A stretch of DNA of 64,000 nt. Source: a virus (taxonomy: Duplodnaviria; Heunggongvirae; Uroviricota; Caudoviricetes). Shown piece after piece: positions 8,549 to 15,068 of the stretch (its first letter is position 1; each line of letters begins with the position of its first letter). Below the pieces are notes generated by a model. That model saw only the letters and a program-made list of their open reading frames with translations, ran no database searches and was not told the origin of the DNA. The stretch lies in the IMG/VR virus record IMGVR_UViG_2721755712_000001; one strand, 5' to 3'. Position numbers and translations under genes: made by a program.

Positions 8549-8857
8549 TTGATGGCCTTCCTACATCACGGCCATCAGGAGGAATACATGTCAGCACTAA
8601 AAAAGCAGCGCATCGATTTGAGATTAACCGATGACGATAAAAGCATCATCGAGGAAGCTGCCGCAATGTCTAACCAGAGCATTACTCAGTTTATGGTTAG
8701 CAGTGCATCTGAACGTGCCGTGAAAGTTATAGAGCAACACCGTAGACTAGTTCTGAATGAAGAATCCTGGAATCTGGTTATGGACGCTATAAGCAATCCT
8801 CCGGCACCGAACGACAAGCTGAAACGAGCTGCTGATCGTCTGAAAAGCATGGAGTAG
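8549..8857 (+). CDS. DUF1778-type (TacA/AtaR-like) antitoxin
   Basis: Small protein directly upstream of the GNAT toxin; alternative starts at 8552 (AGAGGAG RBS) or 8588 (AGGAGG RBS). Confidence 0.7.
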   Translation: MMAFLHHGHQEEYMSALKKQRIDLRLTDDDKSIIEEAAAMSNQSITQFMVSSASERAVKVIEQHRRLVLNEESWNLVMDAISNPPAPNDKLKRAADRLKSME

Positions 8858-8864
8858 TTTACTC

Positions 8865-9386
8865 GTGAGCAATACAACGATAGAGATTTTCTCTGGAGAG
8901 AAAGATTATGATCTAAACGGTTTTGATTGCGGCGAAGAGTCACTAAACGCCTTTTTAGCCAACCACTTAAAAAGGCAGCATGAGGGAAAAATTCTTCGTG
9001 CTTATGTGCTTTGCACTCAAGAAGAAAGGCCAAAAGTGTTAGGATATTACACTTTGTCAGGTAGTTGTTTTGAAAAGGAGTCCTTACCTTCAAGAAGCAA
9101 ACAAAAGAAGGTTCCTTATCGGAATGTTCCAAGTGTCACTTTGGGTAGGCTGGCTTTGGACAAGTCCCTTCAAGGTCAAGGATTTGGCTCAATGCTTGTA
9201 ACACATGCAATGCGCGTTGTGTACAATGCATCTCTTGCTGTAGGCATTCATGGGCTTTTCGTTGAGGCGTTAAATGACAAAGCCAAGGCGTTTTATAAAA
9301 GTTTAGGCTTTATCCAGCTGGTTGGTAACAACGAGCGTTCTTTGTTCTATCCTACAAAATCTATCGAAAAATTGTTCGAAGAATAA
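8865..9386 (+). CDS. GNAT acetyltransferase toxin (TacT/AtaT-like)
   Basis: 173 aa; resembles AtaT/TacT as recalled (YDLxxFDCGEE, ILRAYVLC, SVTLGRLA, GIHGLFVEALN); GTG start with GGAG RBS. Confidence 0.8.
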   Translation: MSNTTIEIFSGEKDYDLNGFDCGEESLNAFLANHLKRQHEGKILRAYVLCTQEERPKVLGYYTLSGSCFEKESLPSRSKQKKVPYRNVPSVTLGRLALDKSLQGQGFGSMLVTHAMRVVYNASLAVGIHGLFVEALNDKAKAFYKSLGFIQLVGNNERSLFYPTKSIEKLFEE

Positions 9387-9418
9387 TGTGTTCCCCTCAT
9401 TTGAGGGGAACTTCGACA

Positions 9419-9634
9419 TCACCAACCACAAACCCTCTCTCCCATCGTATTGTGAAAAAGGATTTGGCGTTCGGTTTCTTCAGTCATTACATCATTATTG
9501 CTGATATAGATAGGCTCAGCCCCATCGCAGAACAACACGCTGGCTGTTTGTGGTTTAATGACGCACCCACTTATCATACAACTCACGATGAACGGCAGAA
9601 GCATCTTTCTGACGTATTTTACTGCTCGTCTCAT
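9419..9634 (-). CDS. o-spanin (Rz1-like outer-membrane lipoprotein), overlapping the i-spanin gene
   Basis: Lipobox-like ...FIVSCMISGC; ORF overlaps the 3' end of the Rz-like gene in another frame, the classic overlapped spanin arrangement. Confidence 0.5.
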   Translation of the reverse strand: MRRAVKYVRKMLLPFIVSCMISGCVIKPQTASVLFCDGAEPIYISNNDVMTEETERQILFHNTMGERVCGW

Positions 9635-9806
9635 TCACCACTTTCACTGTGTTTTGAAGTCGTTTTCTGTCTTCCTGTTTTGCCTTCTCTTCCATTGCTC
9701 GTCGCGCCGCATTCCCGCCCATCGTGTAAGCGCCGACAAGAACGAAAAGAACGGCAGCCAGCGTAATCAAAGCAACTTTTAGCTTTGTCATCAGGCTGCC
9801 TAGCAT
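9555..9806 (-). CDS. i-spanin (Rz-like) with N-terminal transmembrane segment
   Basis: 83 aa; N-terminal hydrophobic helix LKVALITLAAVLFVLVGAY then charged region; sits after the lysis enzyme gene. Confidence 0.55.
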   Translation of the reverse strand: MLGSLMTKLKVALITLAAVLFVLVGAYTMGGNAARRAMEEKAKQEDRKRLQNTVKVVNETSSKIRQKDASAVHRELYDKWVRH

Positions 9807-9807
9807 A

Positions 9808-10527
9808 TTAGACCATCCCTTTCTGGTGTTTTCTTACCTGCGACCAGGCAATGAATCCTGCCACAACAATAGTGGCAATACCGAAGATGATGCGTACTGT
9901 ATCCCCGCTAGAGATATGACCTTGTGCTTTATCCATAGCAGCGGAAACCTGCGGCATAACATCGGCCAGCTGCGCCAGACCAATACCTGCTGTAACAGTT
10001 GCGCCTGCGGTTTCTTTAGTTACAGGAACAGCCTTCACGGTTTTCACCGGCTTAACAACGCCAGCTCGACGCAGACCTTCCTCAATAACTTCTGCCGCAT
10101 ACCAGGTGTTCAGCGTTTTTAGCGGGCCTCGGCCATTCTCGTGGCGAATGATTGCCTCAACCAAAGGTCGAAGGATGTCGTAATCATGCAGATCGATGAT
10201 CATGTCTGCGGTTACACCAACGGCTTTAGACACCTCATTAATGTAGGCGTCAGTATTGTTTTCATTCGGCGGTGCCCAGCGTTCAATAACTTCACGAATG
10301 GTATCGATACTTGTGCCGTCTTTTGCGCGACGTTTGTCGTGGTAGGTAATTAGAGTCACCGCCAGCGCACGAATCCCCCAAACAGGGTCTTTAAACGTGC
10401 AAAAGCGCGGTTCGTCTGGATTCGCAACCAGACCTTGCCACGGTGATCCTTTATCAAGATTACCGGGGTTATTATTACGAATGCCTCTCGGAGTCTTCAT
10501 CCTTGATCTCCTGTTATTGCAGTCCAT
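9808..10527 (-). CDS. putative lysis enzyme / peptidoglycan hydrolase-like protein with C-terminal membrane anchor
   Basis: Position between holin-like and spanin genes; conserved-looking IRNNNPGNL...DPVWGIRA N-terminus; C-terminal hydrophobic segment IIFGIATIVVAGFIAW. Catalytic class not determined. Confidence 0.4.
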   Translation of the reverse strand: MDCNNRRSRMKTPRGIRNNNPGNLDKGSPWQGLVANPDEPRFCTFKDPVWGIRALAVTLITYHDKRRAKDGTSIDTIREVIERWAPPNENNTDAYINEVSKAVGVTADMIIDLHDYDILRPLVEAIIRHENGRGPLKTLNTWYAAEVIEEGLRRAGVVKPVKTVKAVPVTKETAGATVTAGIGLAQLADVMPQVSAAMDKAQGHISSGDTVRIIFGIATIVVAGFIAWSQVRKHQKGMV

Positions 10528-10837
10528 TTTTTACGCCATACGCGGCTAACCCCAAAAGCAGTGCAGTAATAATGAACGACGTTATTTTAGAAACAATGCC
10601 GCCAAAGAACCCACTGGAGATGGAATCTAACCGGTTAAGGAGTTTGTCCAGATTGGAGTGTTGAATACTATGTTGCGCCGGGGTCATATCACCAAAGTAG
10701 GTTTTCAGCTGATCATTGACCTCCTGGCCAATTTCTTCACGTAGCTCTTTACCTAATTTACCAACAACCTCCCGAGCAACGATCGCGGCAATACGCTCAA
10801 CTTGCTCTGTTGTAACGCCCGCCATCTCGTTCGACAT
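10514..10837 (-). CDS. putative holin / small membrane protein
   Basis: ATG at 10835-10837 with GGAGG 5 nt upstream; C-terminal hydrophobic stretch FFGGIVSKITSFIITALLLGLAAYGV; first gene of the lysis block. Confidence 0.4.
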   Translation of the reverse strand: MSNEMAGVTTEQVERIAAIVAREVVGKLGKELREEIGQEVNDQLKTYFGDMTPAQHSIQHSNLDKLLNRLDSISSGFFGGIVSKITSFIITALLLGLAAYGVKNGLQ

Positions 10838-11039
10838 GTTTTCCTCCATGAAAAGTCAAATCGGGATGGCGGATTTATATCACATTTCACCCTTTTGTTG
10901 TAGGTGTGTACTTACCTATCTATGTATATACCGTTTAACGGCTGTTCAAATTCGTATCTAGTAACTCACTAATATATCCCTATGATTGCGGCTGTGAGAT
11001 CGCATTTTAAACCTCACAGCCATATAAATAATGTCTAAA

Positions 11040-14000
11040 TCAGTTACTTGTTGCCCCAACAGTACCGGCAAATTTCAGCCATTGACCTGACGGACTTCTA
11101 TTACTGCGGTAGTGATAAACGAGGATTGCGTTTGTCACTCCACCGTAATCAGCTTTATGTGACGTTGTTAAACGAATTGTATAATCACCGTTAGGTAGAT
11201 TAAAAACTTCGATTATAGATTCTGCTAATTCTACAGCACCAAATCCCGTTATATTGTTGATACTGCCAGCATTGAATCCCATAGCATCGCCAAAGCCAAT
11301 CCAATATCTTTTGCTAAACGCCCCATTTGATTTAAGGTGGCTAATGAATGTGGACAAACTCATGCCCATATCCCCACCTGAAATAGAGGAAGTTCGCACA
11401 GTCATGCTTGGAAGAGCACTGCTCTTCACATAGGAACTTAGAAGATTCGTTACCTCTGTTTTCGTATAAGCATTAAGGTTAGCCGCAGTCAAAGTAATAT
11501 CGGCAGAGCCATCAAACGCCACACCAGCAATTTTCCTTGCTGTCTGCAATTTTGTGGCGGTTGCTGCATTGCCAGTTGTATTCTGATTGCCAGTGGCATT
11601 CACACCAGGAATGGAGTCCCTTGATGTATATACCTGCGCCCACGCTGACCATGCCGCATCTGTGGTATCTCTTCGTGAGCGAATGAAAACTGGCGCATGT
11701 GCACCGCTCGTACCACTCCAGCCAATAAGCAACTCGCCCTCACCAGCAGCACTCGCACCTTTCATGTGCAATACGTTGCCATACGTGGTCGGGTAGCTAG
11801 TGCTGTACGCCTCGTACATTTGAATGCCAGCAGTGCCTTGAGTAGAGCCGCTTAACGCCGTAACTCGGCCACGAGATACCAATGTATTAATATTGATATC
11901 GCCTGAACCATCAAACTTAACACCATTGATGTTTCTCGCTGTTTGCAACTTCGTAGCAGTAGCCGCGTTGCCCGTTGTATTCTGATTACCTGCCGTATTT
12001 ACACCAGGCAAATTTATGTTCGCAGATCCATCGAAGGCCACGCCGCCGATAGTTCTTGCAGTCTGCAATTTCGTTGCTGTAGCAGCATTTCCTGAAAGAC
12101 TTGAAATAAATGGATGTGAACAGTAATAACCTCGTCCATTTTTAAAGTCCAAAATTATCTGTGCATTCGTACTTTCTGATAAAGGATCAGTTGCCCCCCA
12201 CTTATAAGTGGTTTGACCAACTGCATAATCAGCCGTTGGAACAATTACGTTCAAGCCCTCCTCAGCAAATATCTTGATAGGGAATGCTCTGGCTTCAACG
12301 TAAAATACACTACACAAATCGTCATCTTTCACACTTGAAATAATCGAGTGTATAGCTCGCTCAGCAGTAGAATATATTGAGAAAAAACCAGCCGCATATG
12401 AACCGCGATCAGACCAACCGCCAGGCATAACAAACCCATTAAATTCACAATTATTCATGGCGTATCCGCCAACTGAGGAACCAGTAGTTATCACAACTCG
12501 TGAGGCTAATTCATCGGTACTGCCTCTAGATCGGCGAAAGACTATAGGATACCACTTACCGCTTACTGCATTTGCAGGCGCTGAAAAAGTGTATTTTCTC
12601 ATCCCTTTTTTATTGTCTATTTCGCTTTTGCTGTATACGTCAAGGTTCGCAGGAGTCAGCGTTATGTCCGCAGAACCATCAAACTTAACACCGTTGATTG
12701 TACGCGCTGTCTGTAGTTTTGTAGCGGTTGCAGCATTGCCGGTAGTGCTCTGATTACCAGCCGTATTAACACCTGGCAAATTAATATTCGCAGTACCATC
12801 AAAGCTCACGCCGCCGATAGTTCTTGCCGTCTGAAGTTTTGTAGCAGTTGCAGCATTACCAGTGGTGTTCTGATTACCCGTAGTATTTACACCTGGAAGG
12901 TTGATATTTGCAGAACCGTCGAAACCAACTCCACCGATAGATCTTGCCGTCTGCAATTTCGTTGCTGTACTTGCATTACCATTTAATGTTCCGGTGATAC
13001 CACCAGTAACAGACAACGGACCTGAAACTGTTCCTCCGGTTGTTGGCAGTGCTCCAATATCTAACGGCGTCGGTTTCTGATGTGTGCTATACATCGTATA
13101 AACAACACCATCGGTAACGCTGGAAGGCTTACTCGCTGAATATGTTGGCGATGTATAAATAGAAACTGACGCATTTGCAGTACAATCCCAATGGATATTT
13201 ACACTCGTCGCATAATTGCCAATTTCAACGTAAATATCATATGTATCGCCGGATGTGTTGATCCAGGCGAAATTCGCTAATCCGACAGCTGTACGCTTCC
13301 ACAAAGCACCTGTAATTCCTTTGGGGTTTCCATTGCCTGCTCGTAGAACCAGTTCTGAAATGCCTGCCTGATGTGGGGAACCGACGTTGTAACCAGCGCC
13401 ACCAATCAATGCGATGTAAACGATGGAACTCGCTTGTGGCATGGTAACCGTAGCCAGTTTGAACCACCCTGCCCCGCCAGAGAAAGACATCGTTACTGAA
13501 TTTAAAGTACCAATATCTTTCGGCGTTAATGTGATATCCGCAGTCAGTGCTTTTCCGTTAACTTTTCGGTTAGATGGCACCCTGCTATTCGCATTGTCAT
13601 TGGCTGCTTTAACTGCTTTTGGCGTTGCGGCCAGCGATTCACTGGTGCTGTCGACAGCACTGCTAAGTTTCACAACACCTTTAGTTGTAAGGCTTGCGTC
13701 TTCCATCGCAACTGCACCGGCAATCTCTTCAGCACGATCAGCAGCAGCTTCCGCACGGGTCGCAGCGGATTCAGCAGCAGTTTTGCTCTGAGATGCTGCC
13801 GTCGCACTGCCTGCCGCCTCTGTTGCTTTCGTGGATGCCGTCGTGGCGCTGCCCTTCGCTGCTGACGCCTGTCTGGTCGCCTCATCTTTTGAAGCAGACG
13901 CCGATGATGCCGATGACGCCGCCGAACTGGCGGACGATGCGGCTGCCGTTTTTGAGGATTCTGCACGGTTTTCCGACGCTTTCGCGTTCGTTTCGGATGT

Positions 14001-15068
14001 CTTCGCTGCGGAAGCAGACCTCGCTGCTGCGCTGGCCTGTTCAGTGGCTTGGCCAGCCTTCGTTGTGGCTGTTGAAGCAGACGATGCGGCACTTTCTGCC
14101 GATTTTCCGGCGGCGGTGGCACTGGCTGAGGCCTGCCCGGCACTTGTTGACGCGGCACTGGCAGACGACGCAGCCGCTGTTTTTGAGCCTGCCGCAGCCG
14201 AGGCGCTCTGTCCCGCTGCCGTTTCAGAAGACCTGGCGTTCGTCTCGGACGTTTTTGCCGCCTTCGCGGAATTTCCTGCCGCCGTTGCCGAGGAAGCGGC
14301 ATTACTGGCGCTCGAGGCTGCGCTCGTTTCTGATGATTTCGCTGCCTCTTTTGAGGCCGCCGCATCCCGGGCTGAGGTGGCAGCTTCTGACGCCTTCGTG
14401 GTCGCGGTGGATGCAGAAGTGGCTGCAGATTTTTGTGACGCTGCAGCATTCGTTTCAGATTTTTTCGCAGCAGTTGCACTCGCACTTGCGGCACTTTGTG
14501 AGGATGCCGCAGCGGATGCACTTTGAGACGCTTGAGAGGCTTTTTCTCCAGCGGCATTGGCGCTTTTTGCTGCTGCGGCAGCACTGGCCGCCGCCTCACG
14601 AGCTTTGTCGCCAGCAGCATCAATCGCGTCAGTGTTATTTTTATACCACTCAACGTTTTCGTTGTGCTCGTTGACGATCTGCATTAGCGGCTTAACGGTC
14701 ACTTCTGTACCGTCTTCACGCTCGATTGTCACCTCATCCAGCGCAGTCAACCAACTGCGTATGGACTTGGAATCAGCCGACATACGCGACATTAGCGCAG
14801 TAAAGCGCGCGCTAAACTGTGTTAAGTCGCCTTCATAGGTCGTAATGATTCGGCACGGAACCTCAGACTGAGTTTCGCCGGTATAAGGTTCTGAGAGAAC
14901 AATATTCGTATCGCTTATTACGCGCTTGATCTCGTACAGCTTATTGTCGGGGCCAATGACGATCATCCCCGGCAACACACCATTAGCTGTTACGTTCCAG
15001 GCTGTCCCTGCCCCAACCAGAGTATTGCTACCCTGTGTAAATGTGATAGTACCTTCCCTGTACCACAT
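11040..15068 (-). CDS. side tail fibre protein (lambda Stf-like) with Ala/Ser-rich region and tandem Phage_fiber_2-type repeats
   Basis: 1342 aa; long Ala/Ser-rich tract resembling the lambda Stf conserved region (as recalled); at least 5 copies of GN.ATATKLQTAR.I.GV.FDGS..I.LPGVNT. Confidence 0.85.
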   Translation of the reverse strand: MWYREGTITFTQGSNTLVGAGTAWNVTANGVLPGMIVIGPDNKLYEIKRVISDTNIVLSEPYTGETQSEVPCRIITTYEGDLTQFSARFTALMSRMSADSKSIRSWLTALDEVTIEREDGTEVTVKPLMQIVNEHNENVEWYKNNTDAIDAAGDKAREAAASAAAAAKSANAAGEKASQASQSASAAASSQSAASASATAAKKSETNAAASQKSAATSASTATTKASEAATSARDAAASKEAAKSSETSAASSASNAASSATAAGNSAKAAKTSETNARSSETAAGQSASAAAGSKTAAASSASAASTSAGQASASATAAGKSAESAASSASTATTKAGQATEQASAAARSASAAKTSETNAKASENRAESSKTAAASSASSAASSASSASASKDEATRQASAAKGSATTASTKATEAAGSATAASQSKTAAESAATRAEAAADRAEEIAGAVAMEDASLTTKGVVKLSSAVDSTSESLAATPKAVKAANDNANSRVPSNRKVNGKALTADITLTPKDIGTLNSVTMSFSGGAGWFKLATVTMPQASSIVYIALIGGAGYNVGSPHQAGISELVLRAGNGNPKGITGALWKRTAVGLANFAWINTSGDTYDIYVEIGNYATSVNIHWDCTANASVSIYTSPTYSASKPSSVTDGVVYTMYSTHQKPTPLDIGALPTTGGTVSGPLSVTGGITGTLNGNASTATKLQTARSIGGVGFDGSANINLPGVNTTGNQNTTGNAATATKLQTARTIGGVSFDGTANINLPGVNTAGNQSTTGNAATATKLQTARTINGVKFDGSADITLTPANLDVYSKSEIDNKKGMRKYTFSAPANAVSGKWYPIVFRRSRGSTDELASRVVITTGSSVGGYAMNNCEFNGFVMPGGWSDRGSYAAGFFSIYSTAERAIHSIISSVKDDDLCSVFYVEARAFPIKIFAEEGLNVIVPTADYAVGQTTYKWGATDPLSESTNAQIILDFKNGRGYYCSHPFISSLSGNAATATKLQTARTIGGVAFDGSANINLPGVNTAGNQNTTGNAATATKLQTARNINGVKFDGSGDININTLVSRGRVTALSGSTQGTAGIQMYEAYSTSYPTTYGNVLHMKGASAAGEGELLIGWSGTSGAHAPVFIRSRRDTTDAAWSAWAQVYTSRDSIPGVNATGNQNTTGNAATATKLQTARKIAGVAFDGSADITLTAANLNAYTKTEVTNLLSSYVKSSALPSMTVRTSSISGGDMGMSLSTFISHLKSNGAFSKRYWIGFGDAMGFNAGSINNITGFGAVELAESIIEVFNLPNGDYTIRLTTSHKADYGGVTNAILVYHYRSNRSPSGQWLKFAGTVGATSN

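Follow-up and report, generated by a model that had tools for sequence, protein, structure and literature searches.

Lysis cassette of the SSU5-like phage-plasmid Cyrano/pLF82 with an Enc34/M4Lys-type endolysin carrying a C-terminal membrane module

Introduction

How does an endolysin that lacks an N-terminal signal and carries its membrane anchor at the extreme C-terminus gain access to peptidoglycan? The question is raised by positions 9419-10837 of a 64,000-nucleotide stretch of viral DNA (IMG/VR record IMGVR_UViG_2721755712_000001; the whole stretch is referred to as the window). A preliminary description of this DNA had proposed a lysis cassette around an enzyme-like protein whose catalytic class could not be recognized by eye. 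In our analysis, positions 9419-10837 are, with high confidence, a lysis cassette that stands at the end of the late (tail) genes in the SSU5-like phage-plasmid Cyrano/pLF82 and encodes an Enc34/M4Lys-type endolysin. The locus is already known: the same four genes are labelled holin, endolysin, Rz and Rz1 in the records of Cyrano and SSU5, and the enzyme family has been crystallised and biochemically characterised. The locus itself therefore adds little, and the question of how a signal-less, C-terminally anchored endolysin reaches peptidoglycan is one of family-wide reach. No solved export mechanism for Enc34/M4Lys-type endolysins was found in the literature searched.

Results

Element and cassette layout

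The window DNA is 99.9% identical to the Escherichia coli LF82 plasmid pLF82, which is the phage-plasmid Cyrano, an SSU5 relative of about 108 kb. Virions are produced by Cyrano (PMC9928086), and its lysis cassette is therefore presumably functional. The cassette locus has relatives in 407 plasmid records, and about 180 phage genomes encode a relative of the full-length endolysin; the endolysin family is common.

The open reading frame list, PHROGs and the annotation of Cyrano and SSU5 agree with the preliminary description on the gene order membrane protein, enzyme, i-spanin and o-spanin. The four genes are tightly packed on the minus strand (Table 1). Thirteen nucleotides separate the first gene from the second and a single nucleotide the second from the third. 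The endolysin gene lies between the gene for a small membrane protein and the spanin genes, and the order membrane protein, endolysin, spanins also occurs in Chi, BSPM4 and Enc34. A GC-rich hairpin lies between the cassette and a convergent toxin gene and probably terminates the late/lysis transcript; in the consensus scan, terminator-like sites were no more numerous in this region than chance would give. A promoter scan upstream of the cassette yielded one weak site, below chance expectation.

Table 1. Features of the cassette and its 3' flank (positions in the window; residues in the numbering of the 230-aa endolysin).
Feature	Position	Strand	Basis or remarks
Hairpin, GC-rich (GTTCCCCTCAAATGAGGGGAAC)	9390..9411	-	Directly 3' of the o-spanin stop codon; consensus scan only
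o-spanin (Rz1-like) lipoprotein, 71-aa precursor	9419..9634	-	phrog_1275 'Rz-like spanin', 1.3e-24
i-spanin (Rz-like), 83 aa	9555..9806	-	phrog_1026 'Rz-like spanin', 7e-25; hydropathy
Endolysin, 230 aa plus stop codon	9808..10500	-	Enc34/M4Lys type; ORF reaches upstream to 10527 (239 aa)
C-terminal tail anchor: TMD, residues 204-221 (IIFGIATIVVAGFIAWSQ), and basic tail RKHQKGMV	9811..9891	-	Hydropathy, conservation
Linker and weakly hydrophobic helix H1, residues 151-203	9892..10050	-	Conservation; hydropathy
Catalytic domain, residues 1-150	10051..10500	-	Match to 7Q47; AF2 core
Putative holin or lysis regulator, 107 aa	10514..10837	-	Cyrano CYRAN_22, SSU5 gp26 type

Identity of the endolysin and its catalytic domain

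The central protein had been described as 239 aa long. Its open reading frame (9808-10527) stands, whereas the length is probably 230 aa, counted from the tenth codon. This codon, the ATG at 10500, is the most likely start because an AGGAG Shine-Dalgarno sequence lies in front of it and close homologues of 230 aa begin with MKTPRG. In all aligned homologues the start lies closely ahead of the conserved PRGIRNNNPGN motif.

The protein belongs to phrog_873 'endolysin' (6.5e-89, PHROGs) and is 100% identical to Cyrano CYRAN_23 'Endolysin' (CAH1234395), which in turn shares 94% identity with SSU5 gp27 (YP_006906659, 'endolysin') from the same cassette. Neither the whole of Cyrano nor positions 1-100,000 of the 103,299-bp SSU5 genome contains another annotated endolysin, and the family is lytic; the earlier reading of the protein as the lysis enzyme is upheld. 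Scans of all four cassette proteins against Pfam and NCBIfam gave no significant match. Novelty of the family was considered on the basis of this silence and rejected, as the family is merely absent from those libraries.

Homology and fold searches now resolve the catalytic class as an Enc34-type (PHA02564), all-helical lysozyme-like domain. Residues 1-150 match the catalytic domain of the phage Enc34 endolysin (PDB 7Q47, chain 7q47_A) at E=3.9e-54 over residues 10-160 of the open reading frame (phmmer against PDB). The AF2 model contains only helices in its core (pLDDT 80-96), and Foldseek aligned it with 7q47 at E=3e-14, TM 0.75-0.79 and 59% identity. The IRNNNPGN and GIRA motifs, which had looked conserved in the single sequence, are indeed so: 38 homologues of at least 56% identity all have N11, P12, G13, N14, G42, R44 and A45. 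Equally invariant in these homologues are W75, Y86 and E121, which align with W79, Y95 and E131 of Enc34, residues with active-site roles in that enzyme (PMC8943055). The codon of the putative catalytic Glu121 (Glu130 in the 239-aa numbering) occupies 10138-10140. Residues 1-150 are accordingly predicted to be a glycosidase that cleaves peptidoglycan within its glycan strands, with Glu121 as the probable general acid and Trp75 and Tyr86 probably positioning the substrate. Muralytic activity has been measured for Enc34 ORF39 and M4Lys (PMC8943055, PMC7143992); for M4Lys, the data pointed to N-acetylglucosaminidase plus endopeptidase activity. The activity, bond specificity and topology ascribed here to the Cyrano enzyme are predictions carried over from homologues at 54-55% identity.

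The C-terminal membrane module

The C-terminal hydrophobic helix reported earlier, in place of an N-terminal signal-anchor, was borne out by hydropathy: a strong segment lies at residues 213-230 of the 239-aa open reading frame and none is N-terminal. The first 40 residues contain no hydrophobic window, and the N-terminus (MKTPRGIRNNNPGNLDKGSPWQG) does not have the signal-anchor of SAR endolysins. The single true membrane helix ends 9 residues before the C-terminus, with a Kyte-Doolittle peak of 2.07 and a Hessa sum of -0.8, calculated, as for H1, with approximate scale values. H1 has an approximate Hessa sum of +7.8 kcal/mol and cannot span the membrane alone. Residues 151-203, which include H1, hold an invariant VPVTKET motif, the positions G174, Q177 and P183, and an SSG motif just before the TMD; their AF2 pLDDT is 40-50. 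The published 'two-helix TMD' was not confirmed in our analysis, as AF2 gave no confident packing of H1 against the TMD at these pLDDT values and only the second helix is membrane-competent on the approximate Hessa scale.

The module as a whole equals the enzyme domain in conservation, and the TMD is conserved in M4Lys, Enc34 and Chi, with the alignment running to the last residues. A tblastn search of phages with the module returned 169 records. Essentially all were genomes of the chi-like or SSU5-like kind, and where the matching gene was annotated it was an endolysin or lysis protein. An exhaustive phmmer search of 1.84 billion representatives returned 23 matches; those inspected, a set without two long multi-domain proteins, were either complete members of the family or truncated calls. 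The idea that the module is a portable unit was consequently rejected, since the matches inspected in both searches lay within this endolysin family. The positive-inside rule, applied to a C-terminal tail of charge +3, and the predictors run on M4Lys favour a periplasmic N-terminal domain, which clashes with simple tail-anchored insertion with the N-terminus inside.

The first gene and the spanins

The open reading frame of the first gene (10514-10849) would encode 111 aa; a GGAGGA Shine-Dalgarno sequence before the ATG at 10837 gives 107 aa and coincides with the end of the cassette in the preliminary description. The product has an acidic, helical N-terminal part of about 75 aa, a sole TMD at approximately residues 81-102 and 5 further residues of charge +1 (hydropathy). 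A C-terminal TMD is not a typical holin layout. The protein falls in phrog_5093 'unknown function' (8.2e-69, PHROGs), with no match in Pfam or NCBIfam and to no described holin family, and it has no relationship with the proteins at the first position of the Chi (gp37) and Enc34 cassettes. Its relatives form about 30 clusters, the named ones mostly from enterobacterial plasmids or contigs of about 100 kb, and a Xenorhabdus homologue lies directly upstream of an endolysin. The AF2 model is all-helical with a pLDDT of 46.6, too poor for a fold search. The earlier term 'holin-like' was the weakest part of that description: the product is small and has one TMD, but most of it is the acidic N-terminal domain, the tail has no more than 5 residues and no described holin family includes it. 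The holin label, based on cassette position and one TMD, is putative. No experiments on this protein family were found in the literature searched; the first cassette gene of BSPM4, which is non-homologous to that of Cyrano, had no lytic effect (PMC7143992). The ISSG motif lies exactly 35 residues from the end in both the 107-aa protein and the endolysin. Homology of the two anchors was examined by profile-profile comparison and rejected (E=0.49, probability 0.12), the alignment falling on the ISSG motif itself.

Both spanin assignments of the preliminary description were upheld. The i-spanin has an N-terminal TMD (residues 11-29) followed by a short, charged periplasmic domain, as hydropathy and its PHROGs family indicate. 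The o-spanin has the signal MRRAVKYVRKMLLPFIVSCMISG|C with the lipobox ISG|C at 9563-9574 and Cys24, and the overlap geometry, its PHROGs family and its likeness to Chi gp40 agree on an overlapped lipoprotein. The two genes share 80 nt (9555-9634) in different frames, and the o-spanin gene continues for 136 nt beyond the i-spanin stop codon. As judged from these frames, the pair has a two-component, overlapped architecture. The Rz1 gene in the Cyrano record is called too short.

Discussion

In the explanation that we prefer, we infer three steps for the Cyrano enzyme, namely insertion, tethering and breach. The enzyme would insert after translation, as tail-anchored proteins do, because it has no N-terminal signal and only 9 residues follow its sole TMD; such insertion would fit the azide-insensitive lysis caused by M4Lys. 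It would then accumulate tethered to the inner membrane and reach the wall only upon breach or depolarisation of that membrane. At high concentration, the C-terminal module of the enzyme may itself open the breach, with the 107-aa protein setting the time or assisting. In the characterised homologues the module is indispensable for toxicity or lysis. Once the wall is gone, the spanin pair would fuse or disrupt the outer membrane. By analogy with M4Lys, the enzyme would be expected to cause TMD-dependent lysis from within, with no need of a holin or SecA. Truncated domains of Enc34 ORF39 and M4Lys degrade peptidoglycan or permeabilised cells, while toxicity or lysis comes from the full-length proteins only (PMC7143992, PMC8943055). 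The first cassette gene leaves lysis by M4Lys unaffected, and azide does not block it. In the experiments on these homologues, deletion of 13 C-terminal residues also abolished lysis (PMC7143992, PMC8943055). However, holin-independent lysis may be an overexpression artefact, according to the Enc34 authors (PMC8943055). On another contig, a related TMD-endolysin adjoins a canonical Phage_holin_3_3 gene and also a LysC-like gene, which suggests that holins still time this type of enzyme in vivo.

The preferred explanation contains a version, opposed to a periplasmic enzyme, in which the protein is a fusion of holin and endolysin: the catalytic domain would stay cytoplasmic, tethered by the tail anchor, the C-terminal module would oligomerise and make the lesion, and the 107-aa protein would be an antiholin or co-holin tuning the timing. 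The M4Lys experiments lend themselves to this version, since the TMD was needed for lysis and bacteriostatic alone, and the first gene was dispensable and slightly delayed lysis (PMC7143992); the C-terminal module is conserved like the enzyme domain and, among the matches inspected, never found apart from it, and the first-gene slot holds unrelated proteins in SSU5-like and Chi-like cassettes. However, the M4Lys TMD alone gave no lysis (PMC7143992), tail-out insertion would place three positive charges in the periplasm, and the relative beside a canonical holin and a LysC-like gene suggests that a holin is needed. On balance, we consider the fusion a serious possibility whose chances fall somewhat short of even. 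Alternatively, the catalytic domain would be exported to the periplasm (N-out, C-in) and kept inactive or restrained at the inner membrane by its C-terminal anchor, in a SAR-like manner, until the 107-aa protein, as a pinholin, depolarised the membrane and caused its release or activation. The Enc34 authors raised this model (PMC8943055), and the charges agree with it, as the +3 tail and the neutral flank before the TMD place the tail in the cytoplasm and the upstream part outside under the positive-inside rule; Phobius and Phyre2 gave the same topology for M4Lys (PMC7143992), and a high content of Gly, Ala, Thr and Ser makes H1 resemble SAR domains. It is nevertheless rather unlikely in our view, given that an N-terminal signal or hydrophobic segment is absent, that a TMD ending 9 residues before the stop codon allows no co-translational engagement and that azide fails to block M4Lys lysis (PMC7143992).

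A different role altogether, that of a structural 'virion protein' piercing the wall at infection, is very improbable for the 230-aa protein. The same domain does occur at the N-terminus of internal/core virion and tape-measure proteins (9vvp Gp29, E=6.6e-22; phrog_7182 and phrog_2276; T7-like gp16-type), and in older records the Chi-like homologues go under the names 'virion protein' and 'structural protein P5'. However, the gene lies between a holin-like gene and spanins, the protein has a membrane anchor, its homologue M4Lys lyses from within (PMC7143992), and the annotation of Cyrano and of SSU5 positions 1-100,000 shows no other endolysin.

One extension of the preferred explanation concerns the first two cassette products together, and we put it forward as a conjecture with a low chance of being right. 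Both may be tail-anchored proteins inserted after translation, each with its TMD 5-9 residues from the C-terminus and ISSG before it; the endolysin module would be the hole-former, and the 107-aa protein would act through its similar anchor as a co-assembling cognate partner or antiholin. If this were true, the lysis trigger of SSU5-like phage-plasmids would be distinct from holin, pinholin/SAR and releasin systems. Cyrano/pLF82 offers a convenient E. coli system for the wall-access question, being inducible and having a tractable host.

Among characterised relatives, Hafnia phage Enc34 ORF39 (PDB 7Q47; Cernooka et al. 2022, PMC8943055) shares 54% full-length identity with the Cyrano endolysin. 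Both have the all-helical domain, the Trp/Tyr/Glu active site and a C-terminal module of weak helix, SSG, TMD and basic tail, and both are encoded in four-gene cassettes with overlapped spanins. However, Enc34 is a Chi-like siphovirus of about 60 kb whereas Cyrano is a phage-plasmid of about 108 kb, the first gene has an N-proximal TMD in Enc34 and Chi and a C-terminal one in Cyrano, and the Cyrano enzyme lacks two loop insertions, of 5 and 6 residues, that Enc34 has, while its linker is 5 residues longer and carries VPVTKET. M4Lys of Salmonella phage BSPM4 (Bai et al. 2020, PMC7143992) shares 55% identity with the Cyrano endolysin across residues 2-228, TMD included (E=2e-90), and was given the PHA02564 'virion protein' domain in that paper; the first cassette gene of BSPM4 differs from that of Cyrano. 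The spanins resemble those of the Chi family (Kongari et al. 2018, PMC6139136), to which the SSU5 o-spanin has been assigned (PMC6139136): an i-spanin with an N-terminal TMD, an o-spanin with a lipobox and an o-spanin gene starting inside the i-spanin gene. Chi gp40 is 51% identical to the Cyrano o-spanin (E=2e-17) and has the SGC lipobox in common with it, while Chi gp39 is of equal length to the i-spanin and weakly similar (pairwise E=0.015). The Cyrano spanins are unusually short, with 83 aa for the i-spanin and 48 aa for the mature o-spanin. Finally, the SAR endolysins P1 Lyz and phage 21 R21 are, like the Cyrano enzyme, membrane-tethered muralytic proteins for which lysis is possible without a large-hole holin. 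However, their catalytic fold is unrelated to that of the Cyrano enzyme at the sequence level, and their anchor is an N-terminal, Sec-dependent and weakly hydrophobic signal-anchor, whereas the Cyrano enzyme has a hydrophilic N-terminus and an anchor at its extreme C-terminus.

Organization and source of the lysis cassette

The cassette comprises four minus-strand genes followed, after the last stop codon, by a GC-rich hairpin. The first two genes are separated by 13 nt and the i-spanin gene follows 1 nt later, while the spanin genes share 80 nt, read in different frames. A GGAGGA ribosome-binding site indicates the 107-aa start of the first gene, and an AGGAG site that of the endolysin, which begins MKTPRG. 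The closest endolysin homologues are likewise 230 aa with the same N-terminal beginning, and every aligned homologue starts shortly before the conserved PRGIRNNNPGN motif. Given these ribosome-binding sites and homologue starts, the 239 aa assigned in the preliminary description represent the maximal ORF and not the likely protein.

Features of the lysis cassette and its downstream hairpin
Feature	Coordinates	Strand	Product or position
First gene ORF	10514-10849	-	111 aa maximal; 107 aa from ATG at 10837
Endolysin ORF	9808-10527	-	239 aa maximal; 230 aa from ATG at 10500
i-spanin ORF	9555-9806	-	83 aa
o-spanin ORF	9419-9634	-	71 aa
GC-rich hairpin	9390-9411		after last cassette stop codon

A 1342-aa tail-fibre gene (11040-15068, -) lies directly upstream on the same strand. 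Its product, annotated in Cyrano as a P1 S homologue, has a long, Ala/Ser-rich, low-complexity N-terminal region and six copies of an '(A/S)TATKLQTAR..GV.FDGS..I' motif. Convergent with the cassette, and parted from it by the hairpin alone, are a TacA-type antitoxin (PF08681, 5.7e-26) and a KacT/TacT-like GNAT acetyltransferase toxin (8588-9386, +), whereas SSU5 carries other genes at this site.

The cassette region matches Escherichia phage Cyrano (OV696614) and the E. coli LF82 plasmid pLF82 (NC_011917) at 99.9% identity, and Salmonella phage SSU5 at 82%. Related sequence is carried by 407 plasmid records, mostly non-mobilizable, a distribution that fits the SSU5-like phage-plasmid group. 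Genotoxic stress induces Cyrano to produce siphovirus particles (PMC9928086). The four genes are annotated as Holin, Endolysin, Rz spanin and Rz1 spanin in Cyrano, and as putative holin, endolysin and Rz-like spanins in the SSU5 RefSeq record. These annotations agree with the ORF placement and the lysis interpretation proposed earlier. The endolysin is already known: the exact protein is present in databases under that name.

A lysozyme-like catalytic domain

Pfam and NCBIfam scans of the central protein returned no match, which explains why its catalytic class had been called not recognisable. However, PHROGs placed it in phrog_873 'endolysin' (6.5e-89), and a PDB sequence search matched the catalytic domain of the phage Enc34 endolysin (7Q47, E=3.9e-54), whose family is NCBI CDD PHA02564 (PMC8943055). 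An AlphaFold2 model built from 38 homologues reached a pLDDT of 80-96 across the N-terminal ~150 residues, and its sole significant Foldseek match was again 7q47 (E=3e-14, TM 0.75-0.79). In the Enc34 enzyme, Glu131 is catalytic and Trp79 and Tyr95 are important for catalysis (PMC8943055). Both the PDB-search alignment and a separate alignment pair these residues with Glu121, Trp75 and Tyr86 of the 230-aa protein (E130, W84 and Y95 in the earlier numbering), which are invariant in the 38 homologues. By homology, the central protein is thus predicted to be a glycan-cleaving endolysin of the Enc34/PHA02564 lysozyme-like class, with Glu121 as the putative catalytic acid. The N-terminal motif singled out earlier is indeed conserved (N11, P12, G13, N14, G42, R44 and A45 are invariant in the same homologues); IRNNNPGN...GIRA falls within the conserved N-terminal region that forms the groove.

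On its own, the catalytic domain is widespread: it is present in 793 phage records, both as a soluble endolysin and as the N-terminal part of tape-measure proteins and internal virion/core proteins such as Gp29 of phage E1004 (9vvp). The possibility of a separate endolysin elsewhere in the element had been raised; no second lysozyme, transglycosylase or amidase is annotated in the full Cyrano record or in SSU5 positions 1-100,000 of 103,299.

A conserved C-terminal membrane module

The C-terminal hydrophobic helix noted earlier was recovered by hydropathy analysis as a single strong segment at residues 204-221 of 230 (IIFGIATIVVAGFIAWSQ), followed by the basic tail RKHQKGMV. The preceding helix (~164-190) is Gly/Ala/Thr-rich and weakly hydrophobic. 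On an approximate Hessa scale, the strong segment summed to about -0.8 kcal/mol and the weak helix to about +7.8. Based on hydropathy and these sums, we read the endolysin as having one true TMD, ending 9 residues before the C-terminus.

Across the 38 homologues (at least 56% identity), the module is conserved to the same degree as the enzyme domain, including G174, Q177, P183, the SSG motif and Q221. The VPVTKET linker (residues 156-162; 10015-10035, -) is invariant or nearly so, which is unusual between a catalytic domain and a membrane module. It becomes VPVNVET or VPLSVET in distant members, whereas the Chi and Enc34 types have PVNRTT or AVNRAT; the motif could be a site of processing or of interaction.

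With the last 80 residues as query, tblastn matched 169 phage records; virtually all were Chi-like or SSU5-like genomes, and the annotated matches were endolysins or lysis proteins. When 1.84 billion representatives were searched exhaustively by phmmer, the module gave only 23 matches, two of them long multi-domain proteins; apart from these two, the matches inspected were complete members of the family or gene calls cut short.

Spanins and the first gene

The spanins fall into the 'overlapped' class, as previously described, a reading borne out by the gene overlap, the PHROG matches and the lipoprotein signal. The i-spanin has an N-terminal TMD (phrog_1026). The o-spanin (phrog_1275) has a classical lipoprotein signal (MRRAVKYVRKMLLPFIVSCMISG before C) and shares 51% identity with Chi gp40 across its mature part; the SSU5 o-spanin was assigned to the Chi family by Kongari et al. 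(PMC6139136). In Cyrano, the 'Rz1 spanin' CYRAN_25 is called from a GTG at 9538 as 39 aa without signal peptide or lipobox, whereas the full ORF includes the signal, and its alignment to Chi gp40 begins at the SGC lipobox. CYRAN_25 as deposited has probably been shortened, apparently so as not to overlap Rz.

The holin-like label of the first gene, given by position alone, is the weak point. The product had no Pfam or NCBIfam match, its PHROG has no known function, and the first genes of the Chi, BSPM4 and Enc34 cassettes are unrelated and carry an N-proximal TMD. Here, the sole TMD lies 5 residues from the C-terminus, after an acidic helical domain. Relatives form ~30 clusters, the named ones mostly from enterobacterial plasmids or ~100-kb contigs. 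In a phage-plasmid relative from Xenorhabdus bovienii (JAILTY010000012, 2737-4045), a 108-aa homologue occupies the same position and the endolysin is conserved. The gene called next encodes 108 aa with neither a TMD nor a lipobox, so the two spanin genes may be absent, displaced or simply not called. Metagenome contig ERZ27319760 k141_195917 (607-2947) has a different cassette that encodes, in this order, Phage_holin_3_3 (PF16083), a LysC-like protein (PF23793), an endolysin of 59% identity that shares the C-terminal anchor, and an 83-aa protein, indicating that this TMD-endolysin type is also paired with canonical holins.

Both the 107-aa product (10517-10621, -) and the endolysin (9811-9915, -) carry ISSG exactly 35 residues from the C-terminus, followed by a single TMD. 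The motif was aligned in a profile-profile comparison that was not significant (E=0.49); this could reflect chance or a shared anchor design.

Route to the cell wall

In M4Lys of Salmonella phage BSPM4, the truncated enzyme degrades peptidoglycan and the full-length protein alone lyses E. coli, unblocked by azide; loss of the TMD, or of the last 13 residues alone, abolishes lysis, and the TMD by itself is bacteriostatic only (PMC7143992). Enc34 ORF39 behaves similarly (PMC8943055). We found no literature after these papers explaining how the catalytic domain reaches the wall.

With its sole TMD at the very C-terminus and no N-terminal signal, the endolysin would have to enter the inner membrane after translation and build up there. 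Wall access would depend on the C-terminal module, and in vivo timing would probably be set by the first gene product. By homology, the two genes that follow the endolysin encode a two-component spanin. The catalytic domain may be cytoplasmic, with the protein tail-anchored and the module acting like a built-in holin. Alternatively, it may be periplasmic and SAR-like, with a pinholin partner, a topology favoured by the positive-inside rule. The residual value of this cassette lies in offering an E. coli model for the export step of an endolysin family in which M4Lys (55% overall identity, E=2e-90), Enc34 ORF39 (54%) and Chi gp38 all align with the 230-aa protein through the module to the end.
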